NCBI GenBank assembly: GCA_009928785.1
Contig: SABY01000006.1
Span: forward strand, 1,930-65,929
From: Clostridia bacterium
GTDB lineage: Bacteria; Bacteroidota; Bacteroidia; Bacteroidales; 4484-276
Length of the DNA: 64,000 bases
Reading direction: 5' to 3'
Shown piece by piece: positions 20,268 through 57,588 of this stretch. A program made the translations under genes and the position numbers. Each line of letters starts with the position of its first letter. The stretch's first letter is position 1. The notes under the pieces are model-generated. The model was not told the DNA's origin, did not search any database, and worked only from the letters and a program-made list of their open reading frames with translations.

Positions 20268-20364
20268 AAGAATTTTTGAATTAGTAATGGAGCAAAGATA
20301 AACATTCGATTGCAACTGTTGCATGGCGGCATTTGGGTCGGAAACATTTCTTTTTTCTATAAAA

Positions 20365-24990: not shown

Positions 24991-25303
24991 CGTTCCAAAG
25001 TTTAATGGTAGCAAAGATAAACTTTTCGGTGGGGTGTGATATATTTCACACCCTGCTCATTGGGACATCATTGGTGTTTTTTGTCGGATTGGTTGCGTAC
25101 AACAGCAAAAAAGAAGATTGCGTCGGCACCATGCCCCAGCTTTGATCAGTTTGTTTTGGCCATACAATCGATCCTAAGATAATTCCCGATTGCAATCTTT
25201 TTGCACCGTTTTTCTTTAATAAAAAAAAGGAGCGATGGTTTCACCTCCACTCCCCTCTCCCATTAAAAAAGATGGTCTTTTTATAAATACGCAATCGACA
25301 GCA

Positions 25304-30339: not shown

Positions 30340-30670
30340 AATTTGGAAATCTTTTTTCACCCATAGCCGATTTTCACCCAGTGTTTTCACCCAAATGGGT
30401 GAAAACACCCTGTCTGCAATATTCATCCAGCGCATCGATATTTTTATACAGAAAAATATTATCTCCTGCTATCTTGTTGGTTGGTAATATTTTAAATCAC
30501 ATTTCTTTATCAACAATAAGTAACCAAATGGATCGTGGCATTACAATTGACAAGCACCCTTCATTCTGACTGATTAAAACTATTCTGCTTCGCTTCAGTC
30601 ATTTTTTTAAAGGGTATTAGAGTATTATTGTACTGTTTTAATTATTAACATTTAAATCTAATTGTTTATG
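30340..30670 (+). repeat. Copy A of a ~330-nt duplicated upstream leader/promoter segment
   Basis: Aligns along its whole length with 37194-37521. Both copies end at TTGTTTATG, the start codon of unrelated genes. Confidence 0.9.
30371..30408. promoter_or_regulatory. Candidate operator: half-site TTTTCACCCA plus a perfect 13-2-13 palindrome
   Basis: Half-site at 30371-30380. Perfect inverted repeat GTGTTTTCACCCA-AA-TGGGTGAAAACAC at 30381-30408. Confidence 0.6.
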
Positions 30671-33600
30671 AAAAGAGAAATTACGAATCCCAGAACAAAA
30701 GCATCCGAGACCTACCGCAGTGGGTTAGCGATGCTGATCATCATTTTTACATTGTTTTTGTCTCCCTGGCAAAATGTGAAAGCACAATCGTGCTGTCCGG
30801 AGTTTGAGCTAAAGGATGCCGTGGAAATATGTCCGCCTGAGGGCGCCTGCCGCGATTCGCTAGATCCGGCACAAGGAGCTATCGGACTTGCTGCTTGTAA
30901 AGAAAGCGCACATGTTTACACAGTTTACCCAAACGATGGATCTTTTACCTACACCTGGACAGTAGTTGGCGGCACCATTGCAACCAATTCCGGCAATCCC
31001 AAAACGATCCTTTGGGGCACCTCTTCCACCGGAACCATAAAGGTGGTAATTAATACCGGCTTCTGTATCGACTCCATCACACGTCAGGTTTGTTTGATGG
31101 CTGGACCCAAAGCTGCTATCACTGCCGACAGGGACACGGTTTGCACCGACGATCTGGTGTATTTTACCAATCTTTCGTTAGGTGGCAGCACTCACCACTG
31201 GGACTTTGGCGATGGCAATACATCCACCTCGCCTGTAAATCCTATTGGACATGCTTATGCCAGCCCGGGAACTTACACTGTTACGCTCACAACTACCGAC
31301 ATGGGCGCAGGCCAATGGGTATTTGGAAGCGACTTACAATTTGAGTTGCTGGTTCCTTGCGGCTGCTCCGATACCGCCACCCTAACGGTGGTGGTACTTC
31401 CCGGCAAAGGCCCCGAAATTGAGACCGACTGCTGCTTTGGCACCGTTTGCCCGGACGAAACATCCGACTTTTGCGCAGTGGATAGTTGCAGTGTTTACAA
31501 TTGGAGCGTAACGGGAGGAACCATCACTGCCGGCGCCGGCACCAAGTGCATCACTGTACAATGGGATGCCACTTACAGCGTTCCTACCACCGTGAGCCTG
31601 ACCACACCTGGCTGCAGCCTGGCTCCATGTGCCGGCACCACCACGATTAATGTACCTGTGCTTTATCCTAACTTTCCCATCACCGGACCTACGGTACTTT
31701 GCCAATATGCATCGGGTTCGTTTTCGCTCCCAGTACTGCCCGGCACCTATTATAACTGGACTGTAACGGGTGGAAGCTACCAGTTCAATTTGCAGGATCG
31801 GAATACCGCTATAGTGAATATTACGTTTAATGATGCCGCCACCTATCAGGTGAAATGTGTTTACGACAATCCACTCGCAGGCTGCAGCGGCAGCAGCGTA
31901 TTTACGGTAACAGTTTTGCCTGAATTTAAGATTACTTCAGGCGAAGAAACCGTTTGCGAAAGCGATACCTGGACATACTCTGCCAATGGCTCGGCAAATT
32001 GGACGGTAAGTCCCGCCGCCGGTGCCACCATAGCTCCTGCCGGCAGCTTAGCCAATATTACCTGGAACACTCCCGGAACCTATACCATAACGGCAACGCC
32101 CACCAATCCCGCAGCATTTTGCAACAGCGCCGCCTACAAAGTCGTGGATGTGATAGCCAAACCTATCCTCAACAGCATTGTCGGCAACGACAGCATTTGC
32201 CCCGGCGAGAATTACACTTTTAGCATTTCCTCCAACATTTCCGGCAGCCCCTTTGGGTGGACGGTGACGATGGGAACCATCAATATCCTGTCTACTATGG
32301 GTGCCGACAACGATTCGGTGGTGGCCAGCTTCAGTGGCACCGGCCCCTGGCAACTGAGCGTTGATCAGGCGATAGAAATCACACCCGGAAACTTTTGTAC
32401 ATCGCTTTCGAAAGTGATCAATATCTATCCATTCCTGCCACCTGTTATCACCGGGCCGGCTACCGCTTGCGTGGATGATGTGGTAAATTATTCGGCAGGA
32501 GGCTCCAACGCCACGGGTGAGTTTGAGTGGACTATTACGCCTTCGAGCCAGGGAAGCATCATTGCCGGACCAGGCACATCCAATGTTACTATAAAATGGC
32601 ACGGCCCATCGGCATCAGCCGTTCTGAAAGTGGAATCCTGCACCGGCAGCGCCACAAAAACGATAATCATAACGGCGCCTCCCACGGCCATTGCTACCTA
32701 TAGCGTACTACCGGTATTTTGTCTGGACCCCACCAGCACCCAGTCGCTCACACTCTCTACGCCAAACATACCCGGCTATATGTATCAATGGTACAAAAAT
32801 GGCGTAATCATGCCACCAGAAATAGCCGCGACCCTCAACATCAACATCGGCACTTTTAGTTTGCCTGGCACCTATACTTATTATGTAGAAGTATCCATAA
32901 ATGGCTGTACTATTAAAAGCAACATCATTAATGTGGTGATAAAGGATTGTCAGAATGGTGGCTCGGGATACGGAAACTGCGATGTTTCGGCTTATTTCGA
33001 TGCGTACGTTACTTGCACGGGGGTAATCCTTACCAATTTGTCGCAGGCAATTCCGCCGGCTACCTTCACCAGTGCGTGGTCGGCAACAGGGCCAGGACCA
33101 GTTTCATTTTCTCCGGGGCCACCGATAACCATGACAGTTTCGCAATCGGGCATTTACACCATAAAACTTACCGTAACGTCATCGTCAGGATGTGTGGCTA
33201 CCTGGACTCAAAATGTCTCTATTCTTTTGCCCAATGCCGACTTTAGCTTTTCGGCGCCTGCCTGCGACAACGAAGAGGTGAACTTTACAGCAAATCCTTT
33301 GAATCCTGCGTACAATTATTTTTGGGAATTTGGCGACGGATTTACTTCCTATCAGGGCACTACCAGTCATATTTACGGATTGCCGGCTCCAGCTACCTAT
33401 AATGTAAAAGTCACCATCACCGATCCGTACGGATGTATTGCAACCAAAATAAAACCCGTCACCATTAATCCGTCGCCGGTGTGCACTATATCAGTAGCCG
33501 ATACGATGATTTGTCCCGGCAGCGGCGAAACACTTTCTGCCTCCTGCACAGGCATGACATCCTACCAATGGTATAAAAACGGAAATCCTATACCGGGACC

Positions 33601-36600
33601 GGGTGCCAATGCATATCAATACACAGCTACCAGCCAGGGCTATTATTTTGTAAAAATGCAAAACAGTAATGGCTGCTTTGGCAAAAGCAACAAAATTTAC
33701 ATGTACATGCACCCATTGCCTAAAGCAAAAATAGATGGCACCAAACGCACGTGTGCACTCCCCGGCGATGTGGTTGGATTCTCGTTGTGGACGATTAACA
33801 ATTCCAGCTATAGCTACCAATGGAGCTGCAGTTCGCCGGCTACCTTTTCGCCACAAGGATTCTCGTCCACTTATGCAACCATGACTGCTCCTGCAGCAGC
33901 GTTAATGCCTGCTAATTACGAATTTGTTGTAGAAGTTACCGACAACAACACCGGCTGCATTAACTACGATACCCTATGCGTTTCAATTTACGAAGCTCCC
34001 ACGCTTTCGGTGCCCACGCTGAACCTCTGTGAAGGAATACCGGTGACACTATCGCCCACTCCACTGGATACTACCAGGTACAGCTACCAATGGAACAATG
34101 GAGCTACCACGCCGGTGATAACGGTGCAAACGGCAGGTTTTTACAGCCTCACCATTACCGACAAAGCCAATGGCTGCCAGGCTTCCGCCAATGCCGGGCT
34201 GATATTTCCAAAGCCTGACCTGAGTTTGTTCCCGACCGGTTGCGCCTCAATATGCGATCCCGACACGCTGCATCTCTATCTGCCGCTGCCGCTCAATGCA
34301 CAATGGCCTAACAACACCTATCCGATGGCTTATCCATCCATCATCTGGTACGCCGACGGTACTTATATCGGCTCCGGCGAAAACCTGGCATATCCGGCCA
34401 CAGGTTCAGGTTATCACGAAATTTGGGCTGTGGTACAAAACAGCTTTGGATGCATGGATACTACGGCAGTATTTTGCCTAAAAGACGACGTGTGTTGCAA
34501 CATGATTTTCGATTGGCTAAAAACCACGGATGCCTCCTGCCCGCAACTGGCTGATGGCTCCTTTAGTTTCCTGCTCAACATAGCTTCTACAGTAGCTCCG
34601 TTTACGCTTACGCAGATGGCACCTCCGCCGGTGCAGTCGTGGAGTGTTACGCCGGGCGTACCCTTTACCACACCGGGACTTTTGCCGGGATTTTACGTCT
34701 TTCAGCTTTCGGATGCCACAGGCGGATGTACCAAGACTTTTGATATCTTGATCGGAGAGATGCAGGAATCCTGTTGTTTTGCTGCCATCGATTCATCGTT
34801 TATCCATATCACCGCCGATATCACTTACACTGCCGATAAAGTTTGGGATAATAAATATTACATCGATGATGGAGTGATGGTAACCGTGGACGGCGTGGTA
34901 TTGGATGTAACCAATGTGGATGTAGTGTTTGGCGAATGTGCCGGCATACAGTTTATCAACGGAGGCTATCTGCGCAGCAACAACTCGGTGTATCGTCCTT
35001 GCGACATCGACAAGACCTGGAGGGGTTTGCGCTTTTGGAGCCCCGGCAAGTTCGACAACATCATCAACGAATGTACCTTCAAAAATGCCGAAGTAGCGCT
35101 CTATTTCACCAGAAGCTCGGATGGAGTGGTTTCCAACAACCTTTTCTCCAACTGTAACTATGGCGTTCGCGTGGAGAACAACAAAAATTTCAATCATCCC
35201 ATCAGTGGCAACAGATTCGTGACGGAGCAGTTTTTCCCCGACTGGGCCTGCACTACCAAATACTCATTTGTTAATAACTTCAGTACTTATGGGATTTACA
35301 CACTTAACTCTAAATTGCTGGAACAGACCGCACACAATGAGTTTATCAACAGCAAAGGCACGGAGTGGCCACGCACTTATGGTGTGTATCAGATAGGTAG
35401 CGGTGGAGCTTTTTCCGAAAACACCTTTACAGATATTTCCATGGCGTTTTACGTACAGGGACAGAGTTATTACACCAGCATCGAAAACAATGAGATTGAA
35501 GTAAACCTGCAAGTGATGGGCAGCTTTGCCTCGATCTATGCGGTAAGTAATCAGGGACCGGTGATTGAAATTATTAATAACGAACTCCGCAACAACTTTC
35601 ATCAGTACCTGAGCTTCTCGGCTATCTATGCTAACCGGACTAACAATCTGAATATTTACGGCAACACCATCGATGGCTTCTCGTATGGGATCATCAGTCA
35701 GAGTGCTCCCAACTACCAGATCAGCAACAACGAAGTAGAAAATGCTGCTGTTGTGGGGATTTATGTGGCGGAACAGAAAGATAGCAAAGGCTTTATCACA
35801 TGCAACAAAATCAGGATGCGCAATTTGACGTCGAGCATTGGTATTGCTGGTTACACCATGACCAACCGCAGCCAGATCACCAGCAACTGCATCACCGATT
35901 GCAATGTTTCGATTAGTCTGAATGGTTTAATGACAGGTTCCAGTGCCCCCCTGCTTCCGCTGGTGCGCAACAACTTCCTGTATAATTACTATAGCATCGG
36001 AATCAACGTGCAGAATCACTCAGGAAACATTGGCACCTTTGCCAATCCGGGACTTAACACGCTGTGGAGTAATAGAAATACGGCTATCGACATCAACAGC
36101 AACCTGAACATAACCGTAGCCGACAATTTCGGGATGTTCAACATTGCTTTCCCGATGGTACAAATCACCAGCAATCGCCCGTATCATTCTACTGCCTCGT
36201 GTGGTCATCAGATTTTCAATATGCCTTCGCAAGGCAATCTCAATGTGAATTATGTTTGTGAAAATCTGGATGCAACACTTGCTCCTTTGACTCCTGCTGG
36301 CAACGGATTCGTTTTGATGCAGAATTATCAAAGCATCCTTTCCGATGGTTGGAATGATTTTGAAGAGGCTGCCTTGATCCTGGCTTCGGTATCCAATCCT
36401 GACCAGCAATTGCTGGATGAGTTGATAGCAAACACCCCGTTGAGCGATAACCAAAAGCAACTGCTCAGGTATCAATATTATTTGCAAATAGCCAATAGAG
36501 AAGCTGCTGCTGCAAGTCTTAGTAATTTTATTCCGACCGATGAAACCGAAGCCAACTTCAAATTCGTGGCACAAACCCAACTCAGCATCATCGACGACTG

Positions 36601-37036
36601 GAGTGAGGTAACGCCTGAGGTCATAAGCACGCTCGAAGGTATTGTGCAAACCAAAACCACAGTATCCAATGCGGCCATAACCCTGCTTAACAATTTGGCC
36701 GGATATCGTGATCAGTGGGTTGAAGAGCCTGAACTAAAAGCGGTAGAAGCTGCCGGCGAAACCCGTCGCATCGACGACGCCAATAGCTTCCTGCGTATCT
36801 TCCCCAATCCTGTGAAGCATACGGCTTTTGTGGAACTTGTGAACGATACCGAAGCCGAAAGCCAACTGCAACTGTTCGACATCAGCGGACGACTGGTCGA
36901 AAACTACGCGGTAGAAATCGTGGCGGGAGGCATCGAGATAGACATGAGCCGCCTCGACGACGGGATTTACTTTGTAACCCTCACCCGAATGGATAGTGGT
37001 GTGGTGCAGAAAGGTAAAATCCTTAAGATGAAATAA
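30668..37036 (+). CDS. Giant T9SS-sorted surface protein: Cys-bounded Ig/PKD-like modules, two canonical PKD domains, a right-handed beta-helix region and a T9SS C-terminal domain
   Basis: Signal peptide ending NVKAQ. About 6 repeated modules of the form C...Y.W.V.GG.I....I.V.W....C. PKD signatures WDFGDGN and WEFGDGF. YQWYKNG-type Ig modules. Parallel beta-helix repeats (NNLFSNCNYGVRVENN, ISNNEVENAAVVGIYV, VRNNFLYNYYSIGINV). Tail FLRIFPNPVKHTAFVEL...GIYFVTLTRMDSGVVQKGKILK. ATG at 30668 is preferred over TTG at 30662. Confidence 0.85.
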   Translation: MKREITNPRTKASETYRSGLAMLIIIFTLFLSPWQNVKAQSCCPEFELKDAVEICPPEGACRDSLDPAQGAIGLAACKESAHVYTVYPNDGSFTYTWTVVGGTIATNSGNPKTILWGTSSTGTIKVVINTGFCIDSITRQVCLMAGPKAAITADRDTVCTDDLVYFTNLSLGGSTHHWDFGDGNTSTSPVNPIGHAYASPGTYTVTLTTTDMGAGQWVFGSDLQFELLVPCGCSDTATLTVVVLPGKGPEIETDCCFGTVCPDETSDFCAVDSCSVYNWSVTGGTITAGAGTKCITVQWDATYSVPTTVSLTTPGCSLAPCAGTTTINVPVLYPNFPITGPTVLCQYASGSFSLPVLPGTYYNWTVTGGSYQFNLQDRNTAIVNITFNDAATYQVKCVYDNPLAGCSGSSVFTVTVLPEFKITSGEETVCESDTWTYSANGSANWTVSPAAGATIAPAGSLANITWNTPGTYTITATPTNPAAFCNSAAYKVVDVIAKPILNSIVGNDSICPGENYTFSISSNISGSPFGWTVTMGTINILSTMGADNDSVVASFSGTGPWQLSVDQAIEITPGNFCTSLSKVINIYPFLPPVITGPATACVDDVVNYSAGGSNATGEFEWTITPSSQGSIIAGPGTSNVTIKWHGPSASAVLKVESCTGSATKTIIITAPPTAIATYSVLPVFCLDPTSTQSLTLSTPNIPGYMYQWYKNGVIMPPEIAATLNINIGTFSLPGTYTYYVEVSINGCTIKSNIINVVIKDCQNGGSGYGNCDVSAYFDAYVTCTGVILTNLSQAIPPATFTSAWSATGPGPVSFSPGPPITMTVSQSGIYTIKLTVTSSSGCVATWTQNVSILLPNADFSFSAPACDNEEVNFTANPLNPAYNYFWEFGDGFTSYQGTTSHIYGLPAPATYNVKVTITDPYGCIATKIKPVTINPSPVCTISVADTMICPGSGETLSASCTGMTSYQWYKNGNPIPGPGANAYQYTATSQGYYFVKMQNSNGCFGKSNKIYMYMHPLPKAKIDGTKRTCALPGDVVGFSLWTINNSSYSYQWSCSSPATFSPQGFSSTYATMTAPAAALMPANYEFVVEVTDNNTGCINYDTLCVSIYEAPTLSVPTLNLCEGIPVTLSPTPLDTTRYSYQWNNGATTPVITVQTAGFYSLTITDKANGCQASANAGLIFPKPDLSLFPTGCASICDPDTLHLYLPLPLNAQWPNNTYPMAYPSIIWYADGTYIGSGENLAYPATGSGYHEIWAVVQNSFGCMDTTAVFCLKDDVCCNMIFDWLKTTDASCPQLADGSFSFLLNIASTVAPFTLTQMAPPPVQSWSVTPGVPFTTPGLLPGFYVFQLSDATGGCTKTFDILIGEMQESCCFAAIDSSFIHITADITYTADKVWDNKYYIDDGVMVTVDGVVLDVTNVDVVFGECAGIQFINGGYLRSNNSVYRPCDIDKTWRGLRFWSPGKFDNIINECTFKNAEVALYFTRSSDGVVSNNLFSNCNYGVRVENNKNFNHPISGNRFVTEQFFPDWACTTKYSFVNNFSTYGIYTLNSKLLEQTAHNEFINSKGTEWPRTYGVYQIGSGGAFSENTFTDISMAFYVQGQSYYTSIENNEIEVNLQVMGSFASIYAVSNQGPVIEIINNELRNNFHQYLSFSAIYANRTNNLNIYGNTIDGFSYGIISQSAPNYQISNNEVENAAVVGIYVAEQKDSKGFITCNKIRMRNLTSSIGIAGYTMTNRSQITSNCITDCNVSISLNGLMTGSSAPLLPLVRNNFLYNYYSIGINVQNHSGNIGTFANPGLNTLWSNRNTAIDINSNLNITVADNFGMFNIAFPMVQITSNRPYHSTASCGHQIFNMPSQGNLNVNYVCENLDATLAPLTPAGNGFVLMQNYQSILSDGWNDFEEAALILASVSNPDQQLLDELIANTPLSDNQKQLLRYQYYLQIANREAAAASLSNFIPTDETEANFKFVAQTQLSIIDDWSEVTPEVISTLEGIVQTKTTVSNAAITLLNNLAGYRDQWVEEPELKAVEAAGETRRIDDANSFLRIFPNPVKHTAFVELVNDTEAESQLQLFDISGRLVENYAVEIVAGGIEIDMSRLDDGIYFVTLTRMDSGVVQKGKILKMK

Positions 37037-37060
37037 ACCCTTTTCATGAACAAATCCCTG

Positions 37061-37096
37061 AACCGGTGGAGCACTTGCTTCGCCGGTTTTTTTTTG
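37061..37096 (+). terminator. Rho-independent terminator after the giant T9SS gene
   Basis: AACCGGTG (37061-37068) pairs with CGCCGGTT (37081-37088) with one mismatch, followed by T9. Confidence 0.7.
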
Positions 37097-37193
37097 TTGT
37101 AAGTCACACTGTGAATAACCCAGGGCCATTTTGAAAAAAACCTGAACATCTGTTTCATGCTTTCGCAGCATTCACGGTGTGACTGGATTTTAG

Positions 37194-37521
37194 AATTTGG
37201 AAATCTTTTCCATCCCTAGCCGATTTTCACCCAGTGTTTTCACCCATATGGGTGAAAACACCCTGTCTGCAATAATTATCCATCGCATCATTTTTGTGAC
37301 ACAGAAAAATATTATCTCCTGCTATCTTGTTGGATGGTAATATTTTAAATCACATTTCTCGATCAGTTAAGTAACCAAATAGATCGTGGCATTACAATTG
37401 AAAAGCACCCTTCATTCTGACTGATTTAGACTATTCTGCTTCGGCTCAGTCATTTTTTTAAAAGGTGTTTAGGCATTGTTGTACTGTTTTAATTATTAGC
37501 ATTTAAATCTATTTGTTTATG
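37194..37521 (+). repeat. Copy B of the ~330-nt duplicated upstream leader/promoter segment
   Basis: Aligns with 30340-30670 and ends at the ATG of the 513-aa ORF. Confidence 0.9.
37224..37261. promoter_or_regulatory. Candidate operator, copy B
   Basis: Half-site TTTTCACCCA at 37224-37233. Perfect palindrome GTGTTTTCACCCA-TA-TGGGTGAAAACAC at 37234-37261. Confidence 0.6.
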
Positions 37522-45079: not shown

Positions 45080-45081
45080 TC

Positions 45082-51000: not shown

Positions 51001-52902
51001 CAAAGGCTGGGCAACATAGGCTTTAATTACCGGTACGACCAGCTCAACCGGCTTATTTCACAGGAAGGCTGGCAACTGAACAATGGCAGCATGGGATTGC
51101 TTGGACAGGCCTGGGCCGTGAATTTAAGCTACGGCCCCGACGGCAACATATTGGCCCTGAAACGCAACGGACACACCGGCAACACGGATATGGACGACCT
51201 TAGCTACCGCTACTATGCTGCCGACGGAAGCATATTTAATCCTGCGACAGGCGCCATACCCAAAAACGCCACCAACAGGCTGGCCGGTGTAAGCGATGCA
51301 GTGGCTGCCGGCTCTTACCCCGAAGCCAATTATACGTTTGGCACGGCAACCGACATCGACAACCAAACCACAAATGGCAATTATACCTACAACCCTATTG
51401 GGAACCTGATAAGCGATGTGGCCGAAGGGATTAGCGATATTAAATGGAACCTGCAAAACAAGATTAGCCAAATTGAAAAGAACGACGGCACTGTGCTTAG
51501 CTTTGAATACGATGCTTTGGGAAACCGTGTGATGAAAGCCGTTAAAAGCGCAAACACCGACCTAAAAACCTGGTATGTACGCGATGCACAGGGCAACACC
51601 ATTGCCGTTTATACCAAAAACGAACCTGCGCAGGCCGAACAAAAAGGATTGCGTTGGGCCGAAGCCCACATGTACGGAAGCAGCCGTTTGGGCTTGTATA
51701 AACCCGATATGGAGATGCCCTCCGCAACTACCGGAACGACCGTGGAACCCAATATGTACCCCACTGGTTTGTACGAACCCGGAAATGTACAAGCAGGGCA
51801 GGGAGATGTACAGCCATGGGAGGGAAACGCTACACAGGGCTTACTCACACCCCAAACAGCTACATCGCATACCCAGCCGGCAACAGGCACAAATTATAAA
51901 ACCACACGTGGCCACAGGCATTACGAGCTTAGCAACCACCTGGGCAATGTGCTGGCCACCCTAACCGACCGCAAACTGCCCGCTAAAGATAAGAACGGAA
52001 TTCTTTTTTATACAGCCGACCTAATCTCAGCACAGGATTATTATCCTTTCGGGATGTTGATGCCTGGCAGGTCATTCACTGGTTCTCAGGGCTATAGATA
52101 TGGGTTTGGTGGACAAGAAAAGGATAACGAAGTCAGCGGAAATGGAAATTCTTATACTGCCGAATATTGGCAATATGATGCTAGACTTGGTAGAAGGTGG
52201 AATAATGACCCGATTGTAAAAACATGGGAAAGTCCTTATGCTGCTTTTGGAAACAACCCTATTTATTATAACGACCCAAATGGAGATGATATTGATTGGG
52301 GAAAAGGTATGAAAGGATTTTTTAGAATGATTGGTACAAATATAAAATCTTGGTTTAACAAAGATTTAAGAGAAAACCTTAAAGAGTGGAGAAAACCAGG
52401 AACGATTTTCCACTTTGTTAAAAAGGCAGGAGAGCCAACTTTAGCTTCTGGTGGGAGAGCGGTTCCATGGAAAAAAACTGAAGGAAATACAAGTTTATAT
52501 TACTCTTCTCCTGGAGATGGATTGAGGAGTATTAGTTTTTCACTGCCTAATATGAAACTCCCGTCAATTAATTTGAATCTGCTTCAAGGTTGGGGAACTT
52601 TTTTTGCACCGAGGGGCAGCGGAATAGGAGGCTCCTATAATACTGCTCCACAGCACCTTTTTTCATGGGGCTTAGGTAATTACAAAAGATTTAATTCTCT
52701 TGGTTTCAGGAGACCTAGCTGGGGGTTTATGACGCCTGATGCTCGGATTGGAAGACCTGATAGAGGTTCGCTTTTTATGATTTCATGGAAAACTAAAAAA
52801 AATCCAAGAGTTTACAATTGGATTTCCATAGGTACTGCAATTCAAACAAAAGAAAGGATTATTAAATTTCATAAGGAGTTGCATTTTAAACGAAGAAGGT
52901 GA
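45082..52902 (+). CDS. RHS/YD-repeat protein with signal peptide, long Cys-rich N-terminal extension, RHS-associated core and a ~205-aa C-terminal tip of unknown function (candidate polymorphic toxin)
   Basis: Signal peptide MKKLKVILFFLAFIMAFYASA. YD repeats (YYYDQAGNLVKT, YDGLGRIAASQN, YTLYDMLGRMIESG, YSYDIAGNVYKI, YGYDAANRLIKV, YRYDQLNRLISQ, FEYDALGNRVMK). Core end YYPFGMLMPGRSF...YRYGFGGQEKDNE...YDARLGRRWNNDPI...NNPIYYNDPNGDD. The start lies 2 nt after the upstream stop. Confidence 0.88.
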   Translation: MKKLKVILFFLAFIMAFYASAREFPKVTHTMPGTTLLGFSKGDTLRMEVDIPNLNLAALNTVDRKTSYINTINLVLNNHSIVTEDVKVSISGSVLYQIITTANPQSGPVSLELDFKSGEATKSAISEAFVFSNAWKVELLITDVKFEGANGAGISAGLKQILASLLEVQVTFQEESFVKIDYNGVASNLIACHDTRTDEVVIAWDELTEAEFYELEYTFVDDYTSKLNIHRKPNTIPFNFRNNSTRVVLIDSYYRLPKLFERGYLLYRVRAVGRGGNNLQTPVYCMWTNNTNSGMVDSFLDKIFLSAHMDDQMNWQASTTFAEEGKRSDVVNYFDGTFRARQTVTGVNLGKKDPVFLFESQVATNMTEFPNPAVPTIVEPELIITVPWSPYNTGATPGTVDYTPATTISYSSVNCTNRGSNRIREVIAGETIYDYQGRSAVTILPVPTNSMKIRFFPKLNISDNSGKPYNWIDFDAPNNSCAAPAKLSSSLYGGIMGAAAYYSPNNPNKLGFNAFIPQSEGFPFSQVSYLQDNTGRITAQSGIGKTFQFGTGNNRETSFYYAAPNQAEIDMLFGTEVGEAIRYQKNAVRDPNGQVSVTYLNPAGQTIATALAGETPDNLLALDHQITNQINVSLIGKNIHDTDDKTMITEHQFLVTSDNSKYTFTYDILPETLSPSVCKTAYCMDCIYDISLSLNHVESCTSVPLFSYSGTIGQLLDNQNQIDLQCQNNTATGNYPRSFQKTLNVGTYNLTKKIQVNEQAALAYVNEIMKDTCMFEDLLAKELSAIDTMDCYRSCLNCDKPPVLTADCDPYYCEPDLNRCEIIRNMMLADVSPGGQYASYTRDINGNPTSGDEFSYFHGKFWSSNTPAQQINSSFSNFPGNADAKYLLDNWRPEYAEALLILHPEYCMLDWCSEEIKTTLDFDVLLQSTPYYSDAKKLGYVQTGLSPAYKLLLDNDPWFANGNNQSIKSALLAKLQHFPCPNNSPASPKLPIDELAMQLAYCASQNPPQGQLNISGGNPATVKMGKPQINQPSNAPCNVPPNYFATHTFGSDNALVDLEWYFLRSLYLSAKNDRIEESMKVHEHAQQPACVIRCIGAKKNYNHSFFGQLGSPCNFPSNLSLKDKVRRFNYGMSVYLNAMEEAGTPLDISKITNIDDACAISQAISEQAGTINDNFSEKYYPNDLCFDATECDTLLALLETMDQMLQELLANISGTIEYSNGNGLLPNEIIAAGIQKITAARNLAPKEIIFNVGDCMTITIPYLEIDTVKIAPASICCIKDLVCDESTGVCSFTLVVMYENGVQQSIAVLDACSYLFQSCINPGANGGVSRCFPTPVFHEIKDYLNCIFIYCIPEPQIDLLNCLPNGLKTYLGVQADSVDIVIDENYFDLTIFYISDIGDTIKCKISLIPVNPVSPKWAWESETIPNIECLEGPHSFCTANVILNNGNQASITSTCWELCENIPGGTATPPQSPANLNCGGGSLNEIKMYNAPHRPDPCVKALQTKAYANASHLYRQWADSVRADLLVRYYAKCMGATENINIAYDDKQYHYTLYYYDQAGNLVKTIPPAGVEILTNTAVAQVQASRAAAYNAAVLPGHFKQTVYHYNTLNSLVKQKTPDAGESAFLYDGLGRIAASQNARQKAVDAYSYTLYDMLGRMIESGEVKTLPGILASKVSDFAGWTTFITGQAQRSEITSTQYDTPYTTAISQKFGSGGQRNLRSRVATVMHFENSNKLQAKQYTHATHYSYDIAGNVYKIIQDYPNGVINDKVLVYDYDLQSGKVNSVSYQPGKADQFIHRYGYDAANRLIKVSTSANGLFWDTDAEYFYYRHGPLARLELGTDKVQGLDYFYTLQGFIKGVNGTSFNPETDMGRDGIIATPGQGGAQPAPQPVTINGQTFQVFNLSMMFGSSFKGPGYGAMHSAMARDSFGYVLDYFKEDYKPVSPNAFLNDLATTSGQVKYLYNGNIARMYTQLQRLGNIGFNYRYDQLNRLISQEGWQLNNGSMGLLGQAWAVNLSYGPDGNILALKRNGHTGNTDMDDLSYRYYAADGSIFNPATGAIPKNATNRLAGVSDAVAAGSYPEANYTFGTATDIDNQTTNGNYTYNPIGNLISDVAEGISDIKWNLQNKISQIEKNDGTVLSFEYDALGNRVMKAVKSANTDLKTWYVRDAQGNTIAVYTKNEPAQAEQKGLRWAEAHMYGSSRLGLYKPDMEMPSATTGTTVEPNMYPTGLYEPGNVQAGQGDVQPWEGNATQGLLTPQTATSHTQPATGTNYKTTRGHRHYELSNHLGNVLATLTDRKLPAKDKNGILFYTADLISAQDYYPFGMLMPGRSFTGSQGYRYGFGGQEKDNEVSGNGNSYTAEYWQYDARLGRRWNNDPIVKTWESPYAAFGNNPIYYNDPNGDDIDWGKGMKGFFRMIGTNIKSWFNKDLRENLKEWRKPGTIFHFVKKAGEPTLASGGRAVPWKKTEGNTSLYYSSPGDGLRSISFSLPNMKLPSINLNLLQGWGTFFAPRGSGIGGSYNTAPQHLFSWGLGNYKRFNSLGFRRPSWGFMTPDARIGRPDRGSLFMISWKTKKNPRVYNWISIGTAIQTKERIIKFHKELHFKRRR

Positions 52903-53068
52903 TTTGGTGGATGAAACAAAATCACATAATTATTATAAAAATGGTGTAACATTTTAATTGAATACAATAATCTGTAAATCCAGGCATATTATAAACTAAA
53001 GGAAAAAAACAAAAGAGATTGTATTGTATTTGAACTGTTATTTTGGTAAATTGTATAAATTTATTAGA

Positions 53069-53272
53069 ATGATAGTTATTGCTTTAGTACTGTCAATGTC
53101 GCTGTTAGAATATTCCTATTCTCAAGTAGATACGGTACAGACATTGTTGAACAACTCTTTCCCGTTGGACTCGCTTTTGATGAGTGATTTTAAATTCCCA
53201 GATAAAAAAAATTTATATGTTTGGTTGGGTGTTATCAGAAAGCAAATATGCTATGAATTCGGCAAAGAGTAA
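53069..53272 (+). CDS. Small exported hypothetical protein, candidate immunity protein
   Basis: 67 aa from the internal ATG, with signal-like MIVIALVLSMSLLEYSYSQ. It lies directly downstream of the RHS tip in the same AT-rich block. The support is position only. Confidence 0.35.
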   Translation: MIVIALVLSMSLLEYSYSQVDTVQTLLNNSFPLDSLLMSDFKFPDKKNLYVWLGVIRKQICYEFGKE

Positions 53273-53411
53273 TGCATCAAAAATGGAAAATAACGATGTA
53301 TGATTTTGAGTCAAAATTAGAATAAATTTAGTTGTTAATAAAAATTGTTTTTCCCCCGCCATCGCGGATTTGCAATCCACGCCAAAACGTCAATATAAAT
53401 GGAAGCAAATT

Positions 53412-53558
53412 ATGAAACGATATCGGCTTTTTGTAATAATCATTCTGTTTTTCCAATCGTGCGACCGTTGTGAAATTTTAAAGCTTGAGGGTGGGGTATT
53501 AATTTCAGATTTCAACAAAACACACAATGTTATTTATCAGAAACTTATAGAATCATGA
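53412..53558 (+). CDS. Small lipoprotein-like hypothetical ORF, second immunity candidate
   Basis: 48 aa from the internal ATG, MKRYRLFVIIILFFQSC with a lipobox-like Cys. Weak: it is short and lies in AT-rich sequence. Confidence 0.25.
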   Translation: MKRYRLFVIIILFFQSCDRCEILKLEGGVLISDFNKTHNVIYQKLIES

Positions 53559-53610
53559 ATAAACTCGCATCTCGTCCCATTTTATAAGCCTTTTTGCTGC
53601 TATGAAAAAT

Positions 53611-53818
53611 GAGATTTCTCCCTTCGGTAACAATGACAAGCAGGGATAGATTTCTCCCTCCGGCACTGGGCTGCGCCCGTGCCTTCAGTCGAAAAGACAG
53701 GGCTTTCATAGGGGGGTGGGGGAAGGGAAATCGGGCGCTCTGCGCCCGATTTCCCTTCCCCCTACTAATAACCAGACGGCTCTGTCATTTCGACGAGCGC
53801 AGCGATGGAGAAATCTAT
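53611..53818. mobile_element. MITE-like element, copy 1, with a perfect 21-bp-stem hairpin
   Basis: Ends GAGATTTCTCCC... and ...GGAGAAATCTAT are inverted. GGTAACAATGACA faces CTGTCATTTCGAC. Hairpin at 53718-53762: GGGGGAAGGGAAATCGGGCGC-TCT-GCGCCCGATTTCCCTTCCCCC. Confidence 0.6.
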
Positions 53819-54024
53819 TCTTTAAATGGTTTTCAAAAACTTGCCAATGGTAAGGAGCTCGCAGCTGTGAAATCTATTACAAAGAAAATGTTTTGACACC
53901 TCAGCTTGAGGATCCCTTCACCGTTCACACCCTAAAAGCTACCGTTTATGTAAGCACTTAATCCGTTCACACAATGGCTGGGTTTTTCGATTGGAAACAG
54001 TATAGTTTTACCTTTTTTTAAACC

Positions 54025-54123
54025 ATGAAAAATTTAAAAGCATTTCTGTTTCTTATCTTGTTGCTAATCATATCAGCAACATCGCAAGGCCAGGACAGCC
54101 CATCGCCTGTTCAGTTCCATGGT
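54025..54123 (+). pseudogene. 5' remnant of a paralog of the 55480 outer-membrane gene
   Basis: ATGAAAAATTTAAAAGCATTTCTG...GGCCAGGACAGCCCATCGCCTGTTCAGTTCCATGG parallels 55480-55578 (MKNL..GQDSP.PVQFHG). Similarity stops where REP-like sequence begins (~54124), and the frame closes at 54181-54183. Confidence 0.7.
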
Positions 54124-54406
54124 CCCGGCTGGCGCGGATTTTTAATCCGTGCCGGATATTTCCCTACCAGGTGGCATTTGTAATGCCGCTTAAAACAAAG
54201 CCTAAATTGTATATGGCAAAGGAAACTGCAAAGGCCAAAAGAGCATACACACTTTAGGTTTCGGCATCCTCTTGCCGGTGTTTTCGGTATCGCCGGCTGC
54301 ACAGGAGCTAAAGTTTCATGGCACCCCCGCCCGCCGGGCAAATTGCCAACATGCAGGGTTGTAGGCAGGAGTTGGTGGCAGAGTTTTTCAGGAACTGCCA
54401 GGCGGG

Positions 54407-54476
54407 GTTCGCAGAACCCAAACCTGACAGTGTTCGCAGAACCCAAACCTGACAGTGTTCGCAGAACCTGTCAGCG
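54407..54476. repeat. 25-bp tandem repeat, 2 exact copies plus a partial one
   Basis: GTTCGCAGAACCCAAACCTGACAGT at 54407-54431 and 54432-54456. Partial copy GTTCGCAGAACCTGTCAGCG at 54457-54476. Confidence 0.9.
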
Positions 54477-54528
54477 TTTACCAGGATGAATTTTTTACCG
54501 GATATTTATCAGATGAACAGACACAGTC

Positions 54529-54552
54529 AGGTCTTGCAGACACTGACAGGTC
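54529..54552. repeat. REP-like unit flanking the RayT-like gene (left)
   Basis: AGGTCTTGCAGACACTGACAGGTC. It is near-identical to 55233-55256 and in the same orientation. Confidence 0.7.
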
Positions 54553-54583
54553 AGACAGGTCGGTCGGGTCAGGTGTTCACGGT

Positions 54584-55180
54584 TTAATCCCCCTTTTTAT
54601 GATATTCGATAAATTCCGCCTTCGAGTTAAACCATCCCAAAACTTTTTCGCGCTGCAGGCAGGTTGGTTTTACTGAGATAATCGTCAGATATGAGGTCCA
54701 GGGATAGTCGATCAGATTTTCGACGAAACCATGTTTAACAGGATTGTTATGAATATAAAACACTACTTGTTTGAAATATTGCTCATCGGTAATCTTGATT
54801 CTACGGAAAGGGGTTTCAAACAGTGCACCGGTTCTTTCATACCTGAAGTTGAACGCTTTGGCATAAGCATCAAAAAGATGGGCAAACTGGCGTGACGGAT
54901 TGTATTTTTTCTTTTCAGGGTAAATCCGTTTATCTCCCTCTTTCGGCTTCATATACTGGATTTCATCCTCCGCCAGAATGCGAACAAGCAAATGGAAATG
55001 ATTTTTCATCAGGCACCAGGCAAATGTGTCGGCAATATGTACGATGTATTCATCATAAAGCCTTAGGAAGCGCAAATAATCATCCTCCCGGCGAAAGATA
55101 TCGGCGCCATTTATCCCACGATTGTAAATGTGGTAGTATGCATCGTATTCGACAGGTTTTGTTGTATTCAATGGTAACAA
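54584..55180 (-). CDS. IS200/IS605-superfamily Y1 (HUH) transposase-like protein, RayT/REP-associated type
   Basis: YHIYNRG..., HUH motif NHFHLLV, and a Tyr region FYIHNNPVKHG. Its ~198 aa size fits, and it is flanked by REP-like units. Confidence 0.7.
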   Translation of the reverse strand: MLPLNTTKPVEYDAYYHIYNRGINGADIFRREDDYLRFLRLYDEYIVHIADTFAWCLMKNHFHLLVRILAEDEIQYMKPKEGDKRIYPEKKKYNPSRQFAHLFDAYAKAFNFRYERTGALFETPFRRIKITDEQYFKQVVFYIHNNPVKHGFVENLIDYPWTSYLTIISVKPTCLQREKVLGWFNSKAEFIEYHKKGD

Positions 55181-55232
55181 TGTTTTTTCAAAAGTAGTTT
55201 ATTTTTTTATTTCTCTTTTCTTTGACACTGTT

Positions 55233-55256
55233 AGGTCTTGCAGTCCCTGACAGGTC
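55233..55256. repeat. REP-like unit flanking the RayT-like gene (right)
   Basis: AGGTCTTGCAGTCCCTGACAGGTC, which differs from the 54529 unit only in the central 3 nt. Confidence 0.7.
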
Positions 55257-55270
55257 TCATAGGTATCCAT

Positions 55271-55314
55271 GTTTTCACCCATGTGGGTGGTTTTACAGCC
55301 GGTTTTCACCCACC
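55271..55314. promoter_or_regulatory. Degenerate third copy of the TTTTCACCCA operator motif
   Basis: GTTTTCACCCA-TG-TGGGTGGTTTTAC at 55271-55296, plus GGTTTTCACCCACC at 55301-55314. It sits 166-209 nt upstream of the 55480 ATG. Confidence 0.5.
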
Positions 55315-55479
55315 ATGGTTTAATAATAATTAACTGAATTTTTTTCAAGAAATATGTTTTATTTTTAAATTACATCATATCAATCCTTTACAAAATCAAA
55401 AGACCATTATTATCCCTCAAAACAAAACAAGGCACACCCTTTGACTTATAGGTATTTGTAACCTATAAATGCAAGGAAA

Positions 55480-57588
55480 ATGAAAAATTTAAATATACTT
55501 CTGATTCTTATCTTGTCGCTAATGGTATCGGCAACATTGAAAGGCCAGGACAGCCCGTTGCCTGTTCAGTTCCATGGTTCCAACATATTCATCGGGCAGT
55601 ATTCTAACATGCAGGGTATTGGTCAGGAAATTCCCCCATCGTTTTACCACAACGAGTTGCAAATGACACTTACGGCTTACGATATTCCCGTGTCGGCAAG
55701 TTTTTTCGTTACTTCCCAGCAATCCGACATGAAGCAAAGCATCAATAATTTCAGGATTTATTTCGATTACCGCAAAATGCTACAAAACAAAGGGCTTAAC
55801 CTTAGCGACGATATAGTTACTGCAGCAGCAATGTCGGGTCTGAATAAAATTGAAAGCACCAAAGCAGAACTCGAAAAATCTGAGGATTTAATCAAAACTG
55901 ATATTACCGGTTTCCTTGGTGAAGTTGATGTGCAGCAAAAGATTTACATAAAGGCACAAAAGGAATTGGAGGAAGCGCAGCAGCGCGGGGATGTGGAGGG
56001 GGTGGAAAAAGCAAAGATGCGTATGGCTGAGGCAAAAGCTGCCAGGGAAAAAGCAATTTCCGCCTACGAAAACGCTAAATTAAAGATGGAAGAATTACAG
56101 GCAAAGCTTAAAACAACTTTAGAAGCTGTTGAAAAAGCCAAAGGCCTTGTCGAAAAGGCCAAATCACAAACCTACGATTCGAAAGCAATCAGGAAAAATG
56201 CTGAAGCCAAAGCCAGGGAAACCATGTTGCCAGGAGTTTCGCGCCTCATGTCAAATTTTACAACCTTCGAAATCGGGAGATGCCGCCCCAATTATAGCGA
56301 GCTTACCCTTAGGGGAGTACCGGTTTCGGGGGTAAATATCGAATTTACGCCGGGCAAGTTTTATTCGGCCTTTACCACTGGTAAAACAAAAAGACCCATC
56401 ACGCCCGATTCGATAACACGGCCGGTATATGAACAAAACATTTTGTTTGGTAAGTTTGGATATGGGAAAAAACAATCAACCCATTTTTACCTTAGTTACC
56501 TTCATGCCGAAGATGATATCAACTCGCTGCCTTCGCCCCCTGAGTCGGATACCACTTTGGTGGGCGCCAGATCAAACTATGTTATCGGGTCGGAATTAAA
56601 ACTTTCTTTTTTTAAACGAAAATTCATCATCGAGGGCGAAGGTGCAATGTCGATGCTTACACGCGATACACAAGCTCCTGAAATTGACTGGTCAACAACG
56701 GATGTGCCGGATTGGGCATCCGGGTTATTTGAACCCAACATGAGCAGCAGCGTTGATTATGCTTATAATTTGAAAGCGGATCTTAAGCTGAACAAAACAA
56801 ACATATCAGGAGGGGTGCAAATGACAGGCCCCGGATTTGTAACACTCGGCAATCCCTACCTCGTGAACGACAGGCTGACCTACCATGGCAGCATCAAACA
56901 AACATTTGCAAAAAGGCAGGTAAGCATAACCGCTTTTTACAAACAGCACACGGACAACCTGATCGAATGGAAAAAAAACACATCCCAAACTCATGCTTAT
57001 GGTATTACTACAGGATTTAGATTCAGGAAAGCTCCTTATCTGATGGTTAGCTACATGCCAATTTTGCAGGAAACGGCCAATGATACACTGGATTTGACAA
57101 ATCAAATTACCCTGATAAATATCACATCCGGATACAACTACAAGATTGGTAATTGTCGCAGCATGACCAGCTTCAGCTTTTTCTATCAGGATGCAAAAAC
57201 AGGCATGGACTCAATAGTTGATCCTGTAAAAAATAGTACTTATACTCTTACGGAGATACTTAACTTTACTAAGCCGGTGAGTATTTCCACCACCATATCC
57301 TATACCCAATGTGCATTTTTAGGCCAGGAAATAGAAAGACTCATGCTTTCACTTAGCGGCTCACTGATGGCTTTTAAAAATAAATGGAGCAACACGCTTG
57401 GCGTAAACTTTTCGCATCAGGATGTACAGCATCAGAAAATTGGTTTCTTCTGTGATTCCAGCTTGCAACTCTGGAAAGGCAGTGATCTTGGCCTAAGAGC
57501 CGAAAAAAATATTATTGATGATGTTTTTTATTCAGATGTCAGGGTTGACGAATTCATTGCCAAGCTTAGCATAAGATTTAGCTGGTAG
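55480..57588 (+). CDS. Predicted outer-membrane beta-barrel protein with an inserted Ala/Lys/Glu-rich coiled-coil segment
   Basis: Signal peptide MKNLNILLILILSLMVSATLKGQ. Coiled-coil-like stretch ~aa 110-235 (KAQKELEEAQQRGD...AKAAREKAISAYENAKLKMEELQAKLKTTLEAVEKAKGLVEKAK). The rest has an alternating beta-strand pattern and ends ...LSIRFSW, an aromatic C-terminus as in OMPs. Confidence 0.6.
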   Translation: MKNLNILLILILSLMVSATLKGQDSPLPVQFHGSNIFIGQYSNMQGIGQEIPPSFYHNELQMTLTAYDIPVSASFFVTSQQSDMKQSINNFRIYFDYRKMLQNKGLNLSDDIVTAAAMSGLNKIESTKAELEKSEDLIKTDITGFLGEVDVQQKIYIKAQKELEEAQQRGDVEGVEKAKMRMAEAKAAREKAISAYENAKLKMEELQAKLKTTLEAVEKAKGLVEKAKSQTYDSKAIRKNAEAKARETMLPGVSRLMSNFTTFEIGRCRPNYSELTLRGVPVSGVNIEFTPGKFYSAFTTGKTKRPITPDSITRPVYEQNILFGKFGYGKKQSTHFYLSYLHAEDDINSLPSPPESDTTLVGARSNYVIGSELKLSFFKRKFIIEGEGAMSMLTRDTQAPEIDWSTTDVPDWASGLFEPNMSSSVDYAYNLKADLKLNKTNISGGVQMTGPGFVTLGNPYLVNDRLTYHGSIKQTFAKRQVSITAFYKQHTDNLIEWKKNTSQTHAYGITTGFRFRKAPYLMVSYMPILQETANDTLDLTNQITLINITSGYNYKIGNCRSMTSFSFFYQDAKTGMDSIVDPVKNSTYTLTEILNFTKPVSISTTISYTQCAFLGQEIERLMLSLSGSLMAFKNKWSNTLGVNFSHQDVQHQKIGFFCDSSLQLWKGSDLGLRAEKNIIDDVFYSDVRVDEFIAKLSIRFSW

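Follow-up and report, generated by a model that had tools for sequence, protein, structure and literature searches.

How toxins with RHS/YD shells that have been exported by the Sec pathway cross the outer membrane and reach a target cell, when neither a type VI secretion system (T6SS) nor a TcA protein accompanies them, is an acknowledged open question. A locus on contig SABY01000006.1 (assembly GCA_009928785.1) raises this question in concrete form, since it encodes, within the 64-kb stretch analyzed here (the window, to which all coordinates without a locus prefix refer), an RHS protein with a signal peptide next to an equally exported giant protein and a predicted outer-membrane barrel. 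The genes in question, four of which we call B, C, D, and E, are the following, with B, C, and D taken from the list of open reading frames (ORFs) and PKD denoting a domain family:

30662-37036, + strand: adhesin of 2124 aa, a type IX secretion system (T9SS) cargo protein with PKD, beta-helix, and Por_Secre_tail domains (Pfam, NCBIfam)
37513 or 37519 to 39054, + strand: B, 513 or 511 aa
39041-45079, + strand: C, 2012 aa
45082-52902, + strand: D, 2606 aa
55480-57588, + strand: E, 702 aa, predicted outer-membrane protein (AlphaFold2 and Foldseek)

The kind of system is not new, since RHS toxins, the BC cocoons of toxin complexes (Tc), Sec-dependent RHS proteins, and a class of proteins combining a signal peptide with SpvB are already known. 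The C-D module, however, represents a concrete and testable candidate for the missing outer-membrane machinery, in which an invariant giant partner is combined with lineage-variable envelope genes at one genomic position. We regard it as an evenly balanced proposition that this is an RHS toxin system that depends on Sec and is equipped with dedicated modules for outer-membrane export or display, which vary between lineages. A preliminary description of the window had already singled out the five genes; its observations on the sequence were confirmed, and its interpretation was supported in part.

A giant protein paired with an RHS protein

C is encoded by at least 582 species of Bacteroidota and Ignavibacteria (one genome per species was scanned), and its family comprises at least 1620 homologs of ~2000 aa, every one of them annotated as hypothetical. 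The locus set that we compared (83 loci, i.e., 80 from the species scan plus L001-L003) includes Chitinophaga, Niastella, Flavobacterium, Tenacibaculum, Mesonia, Fluviicola, Saprospiraceae, and Stygiobacter, and D was found downstream of C in virtually every locus with enough DNA. The genes are tightly spaced in the window and in L001-L003; in Flavobacteriia, one to four other genes intervene between C and D. Judging from this gene order, C and D appear to be an obligate pair and the invariant core of the system. Hundreds of Bacteroidota, environmental as well as host-associated ones, carry the module, cultured genera among them (Chitinophaga, Niastella, Flavobacterium, Tenacibaculum, Mucilaginibacter), and its components are currently annotated as hypothetical throughout. 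C was also seen split in Flavobacteriia (L066:16135-20683; L069:15714-20885), with a 1274-aa gene corresponding to the C-terminal part of the window C.

The three ORFs in the window are packed as originally described, with an overlap of 14 nt between B and C and a gap of 2 nt between C and D, and the B/C overlap is again present in the relatives L001 and L002 (11 nt). Scanning 37.0-56.9 kb for strong terminator-like sites on the + strand returned a single one, located upstream of B-C-D, with no comparable + strand terminator within B-C-D:

37060-37089, + strand: hairpin of 13 pairs with a T run, resembling an intrinsic terminator, between the adhesin gene and B-C-D

Promoter types in Bacteroidota differ from sigma-70, and a sigma-70 promoter scan was uninformative, with sites exceeding the shuffled expectation only modestly.

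The adhesin, B, C, D, and E all have signal-peptide-like N-termini, consistent with what had been read from the sequence before, that is, positive charge, a hydrophobic stretch (10-residue Kyte-Doolittle mean of 2.9-3.4 across the five), and small residues at the likely cleavage site; these calls, like those of membrane topology, are heuristic ones based on charge, hydropathy, and small residues. The same kind of N-terminus is kept in 32 C homologs and in 21 of the 22 D homologs, and C begins, after the cleavage site, with a highly conserved peptide. No T9SS C-terminal sorting domain (TIGR04183/PF18962 or type B) was found in C, D, or E, which for D had been stated before. Likewise, the reported absence of PAAR, VgrG, Hcp, and TcA (VRP1) holds for the ORFs of the window that were scanned against Pfam, i.e., 25 of the larger ones (outside the scan lay four of 146-286 aa within 14.2-17.7 kb and the ORFs in 60.8-64 kb), with the 64-kb window being the entire sample of this genome.

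D is a bona fide DUF6443-RHS polymorphic toxin and probably a self-contained one. Its parts are:

46339-46761, + strand: DUF6443 module, aa ~420-560, within a conserved N-terminal block (aa ~200-700)
49669-52038, + strand: YD-repeat shell, aa ~1530-2319 (about 790 aa), from the family profile against PDB
52039-52287, + strand: RHS-associated core, aa 2320-2402, with two Asp motifs (NDPI ... DPNGD)
52288-52902, + strand: variable tail, aa 2403-2606 (204 aa), basic and rich in Trp, Gly, and Phe; presumed toxin

Taken alone, D matches RHS_repeat of Pfam weakly (5.6e-6) and the Rhs core TIGR03696 at aa 2320-2401 with an E value of 1e-4 and 22.6 bits, short of the 32.5-bit cut-off. The profile of the D family (22 complete homologs taken from related loci), over the region aligned to aa 1500-2402, matched SGS1 (1.5e-26), RhsP (1e-17), Tse5 (1e-16), RhsA (6.5e-15), YenC2 (1.5e-10), and a teneurin-like protein (6e-10) in PDB. 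The YD repeats, the core ending in DPNGD, and the tail of the preliminary description are hence all present; the core ends ...NDPIVKTWESPYAAFGNNPIYYNDPNGD and is directly followed by the tail. The core motif (...DPL..S/TPY..N.P...D.DG) is kept in 22/22 complete homologs, and in the window D the catalytic motif, read directly (NDPI...DPNGD), is intact. The tails of the 22 homologs (194-304 aa) begin exactly after the core and are mutually dissimilar; one of them carries a known toxin domain, the nuclease Tox-HNH-HHH (1.1e-13), and others show weak matches to Gln_amidase (glutamine deamidase), a C39-like peptidase, and lipase. In many relatives, a small variable ORF starts between -6 and +30 nt from the stop codon of D, and one locus (L044:26501-27173) has an orphan RHS core plus toxin cassette past the presumed immunity ORF. 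Orphan core-toxin cassettes are the classical C-terminal displacement layout of rhs loci. The retained core, unrelated tails, coupled small ORFs, and orphan cassette together amount to a polymorphic-toxin signature for the D family.

DUF6443 (PF20041) was found in 22/22 members (best E 2e-12), and D is therefore assigned to the DUF6443-RHS class of Bacteroidota; the window D itself scores 0.0026 at aa 518-556, under the gathering score. A long Cys-rich and poorly conserved insert occupies aa ~700-1500, and an FN3-like signature at aa ~195-290 was read by eye only. The N-terminal block gave no match as a profile against PDB and none by hhalign against the D shell, and no NHL domain was detected in the 22 members, one of which carries a Kelch insert.

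C, in turn, has no match in Pfam, NCBIfam, or PDB sequences, and its full family profile matched nothing in PDB, RHS proteins included. Four parts could be delineated from the family:

39158-39355, + strand: SpvB/TcaC-N-like motif, aa ~40-105 (SGxFxYxIPL...YPxNLxYxSG...GLGWNLN...RGLPDDF)
39386-40345, + strand: candidate outer-membrane beta-barrel module, aa ~116-435, with ~12-14 long Gly/Ser-rich strands
44408-44890, + strand: jelly-roll lectin-type domain, aa ~1790-1950 (approximate), from Pfam matches of relatives
44852-45064, + strand: terminal YD/RHS-like hairpins, aa 1938-2008, the sole RHS-like part of C

The SpvB/TcaC-like motif noticed in the preliminary description is, on the profile evidence, real at the level of the family, yet short and weak. 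PF03534 is the sole recurrent Pfam family in the N-termini of C (15 of 42 members, weak, best E 0.001), whereas the window C itself has no match to it, and the SpvB-like stretch spans roughly 40-70 aa of a domain of ~300 aa. By hhalign against SpvB plus four TcB-type N-termini, C aa 63-104 aligned with SpvB aa 54-97 (E 0.009, probability 4.6%), a short (~40 aa), weak match in the expected register; against the single SpvB sequence, the N-terminus of C aligned with nothing.

Next to this motif, aa 116-435 of C probably sit in the outer membrane as a beta-barrel module, a reading of predicted structure and strand amphipathicity. The family-averaged dyad hydrophobicity of aa 116-240 and 395-435 reaches 2.3-2.5, compared to 0.83 for the D shell, ~1.0 for the rest of C, and 1.46 for the predicted barrel of E, and 5/42 N-termini gave weak matches to Pfam families of outer-membrane barrels. 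When the AlphaFold2 model of C (aa 21-1220, pLDDT 70.6) was compared with PDB by Foldseek, only SGS1 (1.6e-7, probability 0.99) and TcdB2-TccC3 (7.9e-5) were found at E<=0.001; generic outer-membrane barrels and autotransporter barrels came further down the list (probability 0.97-0.98, E ~0.07-0.09). About 1200 aa without a known family then separate the barrel-like module from the lectin-type domain. Scanning aa ~400-1650 of 33 members individually against Pfam revealed no TcB mid-domain, FG-GAP propeller, or RHS repeats, and nothing recurrent. The last ~420 aa of these members matched CBM_4_9 (8/33), PA14 (5/33, 3e-15), and GLEYA (4/33), and PF02018 and PF07691 appear in the precomputed annotation of C homologs. 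Finally, RHS_repeat was found at the extreme C-terminal end in 7 of the 33 members (E 0.025 in the window C), and it is this terminal hairpin alone that aligned, at a probability of 3%, when full-length C was compared with the D shell by hhalign.

These results bear directly on the interpretation offered in the preliminary description, namely a split TcB/TcC-like cocoon of which C and D each form one half, with C providing an SpvB-type part of the shell, D the rest plus the toxin, and export following passage through Sec. The SpvB-like motif at the homologous N-terminal position, the two Tc-like structures as the only significant matches of the C model, the YD-type hairpins that close C just 2 nt ahead of the start of D, and the strict pairing of the two genes are all what a split cocoon would predict. 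However, the model of C has TM-scores of only 0.06-0.12 to those structures, neither RHS repeats nor a TcdB mid or FG-GAP propeller domain was detected at aa ~400-1650 of the 33 C members scanned, and the amphipathicity of its beta module is unlike that of the D shell. In addition, C and D have separate signal peptides and can be one to four genes apart in Flavobacteriia, and D possesses its own DUF6443 module, ~790 aa of YD repeats, and a core, which should be enough for a shell of its own. We therefore consider a split cocoon unlikely. Given its lectin-type domain, SpvB-like motif, amphipathic strands, and YD hairpin, C is instead read here as a carrier of D rather than as a TcB half-shell.

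Outer-membrane partners that differ between lineages

On the evidence of gene order, C-D is repeatedly coupled to genes for outer-membrane export or assembly, which differ by lineage. Profile searches located B in 51/73 loci and E in 23/67, with E-B-C-D as the main order; in the closest relative, L089 (77-81% identity), D is followed by a 173-aa ORF, a T9SS cargo gene, and then E. The test of co-occurrence, which the preliminary description had set as one that could refute it, thus came out divided: the five-gene set is not conserved as a whole, but C-D is universal, B frequent, and E present in a subset. The tie of E to the locus, which had been suggested, holds by synteny, by the operator that it shares with B-C-D (below), and by fusions of B and E, i.e., ORFs matching both profiles (L024:23369-25828; L002:24570-25916; L003:15642-17084; L075:24732-26300). 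As these ORFs join a B-like domain to an E-like barrel, B and E are likely to be functionally linked. A second B-like gene after D, possibly the start of a tandem second system, was also noted in Stygiobacter and in L075.

E (48 homologs, all unnamed proteins) is predicted to be a 26-strand outer-membrane beta-barrel. Its AlphaFold2 model (pLDDT 81.6) has four strands, a helical hairpin of 2 x 58 aa (aa 112-229; 55813-56166), and then 22 further strands, and the protein ends in an aromatic residue (...RFSW). Foldseek returned 248 matches at E<=0.001, almost all outer-membrane barrels among the matches listed, with the 26-strand MtrB giving the top TM-score (TMq 0.44). With four strands, an even number, ahead of it, the hairpin is expected to extend into the periplasm. 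B consists of Ig-like beta-sandwich domains and has a conserved, DUF928-like N-terminal region of ~240 aa; DUF928 was detected in 15 of 32 members (best 1.3e-6), besides several Ig-type families. Alone, neither B nor E matched anything in Pfam, NCBIfam, or PDB sequences, and the B profile found nothing meaningful in PDB. Far below threshold, B-family members matched Por_Secre_tail (4/32) and TANFOR (2/32); the window B has a very weak TANFOR match of this kind at aa 107-146 (TIGR02542, E 0.07), which recurs in one relative. A remote link between B and TANFOR is conceivable on these alignments, but unsupported.

In other lineages, loci lacking B and E have different genes at the same position. 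In 26-30 loci, C directly follows genes for a ~175-aa protein, the profile of which matches E. coli Skp (1SG2, 7.8e-12), and for a ~210-aa lipoprotein without a known family; the Skp paralog was counted in 26 loci (e.g., L066:8675-9202, L043:8867-9373, and L011 from 8740) and the lipoprotein after it in 30. Skp chaperones outer-membrane barrels and autotransporters. Farther upstream of the Skp paralog, the lipoprotein, and C, a gene set resembling type II secretion systems (T2SS) or type IV pili (T4P) was found in at least 10 loci of several genera, i.e., L066:319-9851 (Tenacibaculum sp. nBUS_03), L047, L056, L065, L069, L020, L053, L007, L045, and L078. These genes lie mostly on the strand of C (divergent in L045) and, in L066, are separated by gaps of <=7 nt or short overlaps. 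Compared with solved structures, they include a PilB/GspE-type ATPase (3e-96) and a GspD-type secretin (3e-22), whereas the assignment of pseudopilins, a GspF-like platform protein, a prepilin peptidase, and PilM/N/O-like proteins was made by eye. In Bacteroidota, machines of the T2SS type are regarded as rare. In Flavobacteriia, it is the Skp paralog and the lipoprotein, often with the T2SS/T4P-like secretin cluster, that precede C-D, and a combined order (E-B-Skp-lipoprotein-C) occurs in L011 and L025.

The region between C and D also varies. A conserved exported protein of ~240 aa is encoded just before D in 20 loci and has no counterpart in the window; a 237-aa gene of Stygiobacter (L002:15913-16626) occupies the same position. 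L069 carries two identical tandem 476-aa genes before D, and the window has none.

Export, display, and the alternatives

The model that we favor, in which topology, binding partners, export route, and toxicity are our reading of the gene families, synteny, domains, tail polymorphism, and predicted folds described above, would operate as follows. Sec would carry C and D into the periplasm, where C would insert into the outer membrane with its lectin-bearing part exposed, and thus serve as a target-binding carrier that keeps D at the cell surface, plausibly via the YD hairpin. The YD shell and aspartyl-protease core of D would encapsulate and cleave off the strain-specific C-terminal toxin. B may act as a periplasmic adaptor and E as a channel by which C, D, or both cross or enter the outer membrane, with the helical hairpin of E, ~85 angstrom long, standing in the periplasm; in other lineages, the Skp paralog, the lipoprotein, and the T2SS/T4P-like secretin machine encoded at the same genomic position may take over this task. 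Contact with a target cell would then free the toxin from its shell. Since neither a 26-strand barrel nor a secretin could accommodate a folded RHS shell, D would have to pass unfolded or be assembled outside the cell.

A further-reaching version of this model is that C-D and its lineage-specific partners represent an unrecognized two-step secretion/display pathway of the FCB (Fibrobacteres-Chlorobi-Bacteroidetes) superphylum for caged RHS toxins, that is, a contact-dependent weapon that works without T6SS, T9SS, or TcA, in which an outer-membrane-anchored giant protein with an SpvB motif presents the RHS shell and its lectin domain does the targeting. We advance this version tentatively, as a possibility that we are inclined to doubt somewhat more than to believe.

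Several results weigh against the model. Export is its weakest step, and the size mismatch between shell and channel is our own inference. The barrel-like part of C was modeled at a pLDDT of 50-76 only, in a model that spans aa 21-1220, the TM-scores of this model to Tc-like structures are very low (0.12 for SGS1, 0.06 for TcdB2-TccC3), and the amphipathic sheet of C may face a protein core instead of lipid. Neither B (51/73) nor E (23/67) is universal, and the operator motif described below is not kept in related loci, save for a degenerate copy in L089, the closest relative. As to the toxin, the tail of the window D has no homolog in a word-indexed search of 5.8 billion clustered proteins or in an exhaustive phmmer search of 1.84 billion representative proteins, and neither a Pfam domain nor a known toxin fold was found in it; this tail is an orphan, and its toxicity in the source genome is consequently inferred from the D family. 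The ORFs downstream of D in the window also lack the tight coupling seen in relatives, the first of them starting about 120-170 nt past D.

Alternatively, C might be a type V-like (inverse-autotransporter-like) adhesin that exports its own C-terminal passenger, with D being a separate cargo and E and B having other roles (e.g., porin, adhesin assembly). A barrel-like N-terminal module followed by a long passenger with lectin domains is the layout that such an adhesin would have, and the Skp paralogs adjoin C. However, C has no sequence relation to intimin/invasin or to the autotransporter families, and its strict pairing with D, together with the repeated linkage to the E barrel or to a secretin, argues for C alone being insufficient. 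We judge this alternative to have a low probability, and favor the carrier model for C.

Less probable still, in our view, is that the system is not a weapon at all, with D representing a teneurin-like surface protein for adhesion or kin recognition and the tail in the window being non-toxic or degenerate. The orphan tail would fit this view, as would the absence of a tightly coupled immunity ORF, the match of the D shell profile to teneurin-like proteins (6e-10), and the lectin domains of C. The G+C content falls to 0.37 in 52-54 kb, just downstream of the tail, and two ORFs in this region, which start ~170 and ~510 nt past the stop codon of D, are candidates for immunity genes:

53070-53272, + strand: short ORF whose N-terminus resembles a signal peptide (MIVIALVLSMSLLEYSYSQ...); may encode an immunity protein
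53412-53558, + strand: short ORF whose signal resembles that of lipoproteins (..LFFQSC); the other candidate for an immunity protein

What speaks for a weapon instead is that, across the family, tail polymorphism starts exactly at the RHS core, that tails of relatives carry nuclease and peptidase toxin domains, that small downstream ORFs are coupled to D in relatives and one orphan cassette exists, and that the core motif is intact in the window D.

Finally, the adhesin gene brings in the T9SS. The adhesin carries a C-terminal Por_Secre_tail (8.7e-13; TIGR04183 1.1e-10; Pfam, NCBIfam), and a second T9SS cargo gene in the window, at 18558-20381 on the - strand, encodes a subtilase with a Por_Secre_tail of 5.9e-13; together with the taxonomy of the relatives, these cargo genes suggest that the contig, whose source MAG is labelled "Clostridia bacterium", was mis-binned and belongs to Bacteroidota. 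As had been pointed out, one palindrome lies upstream of all three transcription units. The 10-mer TTTTCACCCA occurs exactly nine times in the window, confined to three clusters:

30354-30405, strand not assigned: operator cluster 1, with TTTTCACCCA in four exact copies (one of them inverted, the other three direct), at ~260-310 bp upstream of the adhesin gene
37224-37258, strand not assigned: operator cluster 2, with the perfect 22-bp palindrome TTTTCACCCATATGGGTGAAAA (37237-37258), ~260-290 bp upstream of B
55272-55312, strand not assigned: operator cluster 3, holding two exact copies and an incomplete palindrome, at 170-210 bp upstream of E

When one mismatch at most was allowed, 15 copies were observed against 7.5 expected, and one of 100 shuffles reached 15. 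The full operator site is the perfect 22-bp palindrome TTTTCACCCATATGGGTGAAAA, and the palindrome sites lie at 30384-30405, 37237-37258, and 55272-55290. A 22-bp palindrome is a typical site of a dimeric regulator, and since this operator is common to the B-C-D, E, and adhesin units, they are probably switched on jointly in the source genome. A Crp/Fnr-type regulator, one candidate for the protein that binds this site, is encoded 5 kb upstream of cluster 1 (24283-25014, - strand), and a Y_Y_Y histidine kinase gene adjoins the operon in L001 and L002, accompanied in L002 by a LytTR response regulator gene.

The adhesin had been proposed to be part of the system. We rejected it as such because it shows no synteny across the 83 loci, where only generic PKD matches were found, and regard it as a neighbor that shares the operator. 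That B and the neighboring T9SS cargo proteins tie the export of C and D to the T9SS, comparable to the hypothesis put forward for TANFOR toxins, is improbable, as C and D lack the sorting domain, the adhesin is not syntenic, the matches of B to Por_Secre_tail (4/32) and TANFOR (2/32) are far below threshold, and dedicated non-T9SS outer-membrane components co-occur instead, even though T9SS cargo genes flank the locus in the window, one lies between D and E in L089, the adhesin has the same operator, and T9SS cargo is enriched around TANFOR toxin genes (PMC7073777).

Relation to known systems and the D-E junction

The closest comparison is with the Tc BC subcomplex (TcdB2-TccC3, YenB-YenC2), where there are likewise two adjacent large genes, the upstream product starting with an SpvB-type motif and the downstream one carrying YD repeats, an RHS core protease, and a variable C-terminal toxin, and where YenC2 is matched by the D profile. 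Unlike in Tc BC, both C and D carry signal peptides, the scanned ORFs of the window include no TcA, and D has a DUF6443 module of its own; C, in contrast to TcB, has no propeller or detectable RHS repeats and has a barrel-like module plus lectin domains, and the accessory genes are different ones, for an outer-membrane barrel, an Ig-like protein, Skp, or a T2SS-like cluster. A class of RHS-associated proteins combining a signal peptide with SpvB, Bacteroidetes included, was catalogued computationally in 2012 as a "TcdB/TcaC-like export pathway" (Zhang et al. 2012, PMC3482391). That class is defined by SpvB with an integrin-like beta-propeller, whereas C has the short SpvB-like motif and no propeller was detected in it; further, the description of the class is without the outer-membrane components seen here.

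Sec-dependent teneurin-like RHS proteins have been reported from Gram-negative Myxococcota, and from six phyla in all, Bacteroidota not being among them; their delivery route was stated to be unknown, with no delivery machinery evident (PMC13018210). The preliminary description had cited Sec export of the WapA type from Gram-positives; the view that it is confined to them is outdated in light of that report and of PMC3482391. WapA and the teneurin-like proteins resemble D in having a signal peptide, a YD shell, a core protease, polymorphic C-termini with immunity genes, and presumed surface display. However, the teneurin-like proteins are single chains in which FN-plug, NHL propeller, and TIP domain are combined, whereas D has a giant protein as obligate partner, outer-membrane genes dedicated to the system, and no detectable NHL. 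The T6SS Rhs effectors (RhsA, Tse5, RhsP, Tse15) have the same shell and core and are among the best profile matches of D, but D has no PAAR/VgrG linkage, and its cleavable signal peptide sends it to the periplasm, which is incompatible with T6SS loading from the cytoplasm.

Two-partner secretion (CdiB-CdiA) and the chaperone-usher systems are functional analogues only, the likeness being a dedicated outer-membrane barrel, accompanied here by a periplasmic Ig-like protein (B), next to a giant surface protein with a polymorphic C-terminal toxin and a receptor-binding region. There is no membership in these systems by sequence or fold, E has 26 strands and no POTRA domain, and the toxin is caged in an RHS shell, whereas the contact-dependent inhibition (CDI) toxin sits on a filament of FHA repeats. 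The TANFOR toxins occur in neighborhoods enriched in T9SS cargo, and their passage of the outer membrane via the T9SS was offered as speculation (PMC7073777). They resemble the present system in being Sec-dependent and polymorphic, in coming from the same phylum, in lacking an established route through the outer membrane, and in having T9SS cargo nearby (PMC7073777), but they are not RHS proteins, and the sole TANFOR-like match here is that of B (E 0.07).

In the literature that we searched, nothing was found on the C family, the pairing of C with a DUF6443-RHS protein, the E and B families, the Skp or T2SS-like modules, or the operon, in line with the preliminary view that the arrangement is undescribed. 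What is gained, beyond the candidate machinery, is a number of large families that Pfam does not cover (C, E, and B for the most part), plus a pool of uncharacterized toxin tails.

It is also worth describing the stretch that separates D and E in the window, where a gene for a REP-associated tyrosine transposase (54584-55180, - strand; NCBIfam 5.4e-15) and, beside it at 53600-54580, REP-like palindromes together with short repeats in tandem (e.g., 53718-53760, 54415-54470) are inserted. Within this stretch, at 54025-54130 and thus upstream of the intact gene, lies a duplicated 5' piece of E (MKNLKAF...QGQDSPSPVQFHG), and the closest relative has a similar E pseudo-fragment with the same promoter-like palindrome after it (L089:7850-7990). 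The duplicated E fragments in both the window and L089 suggest a past rearrangement at the D-E junction.

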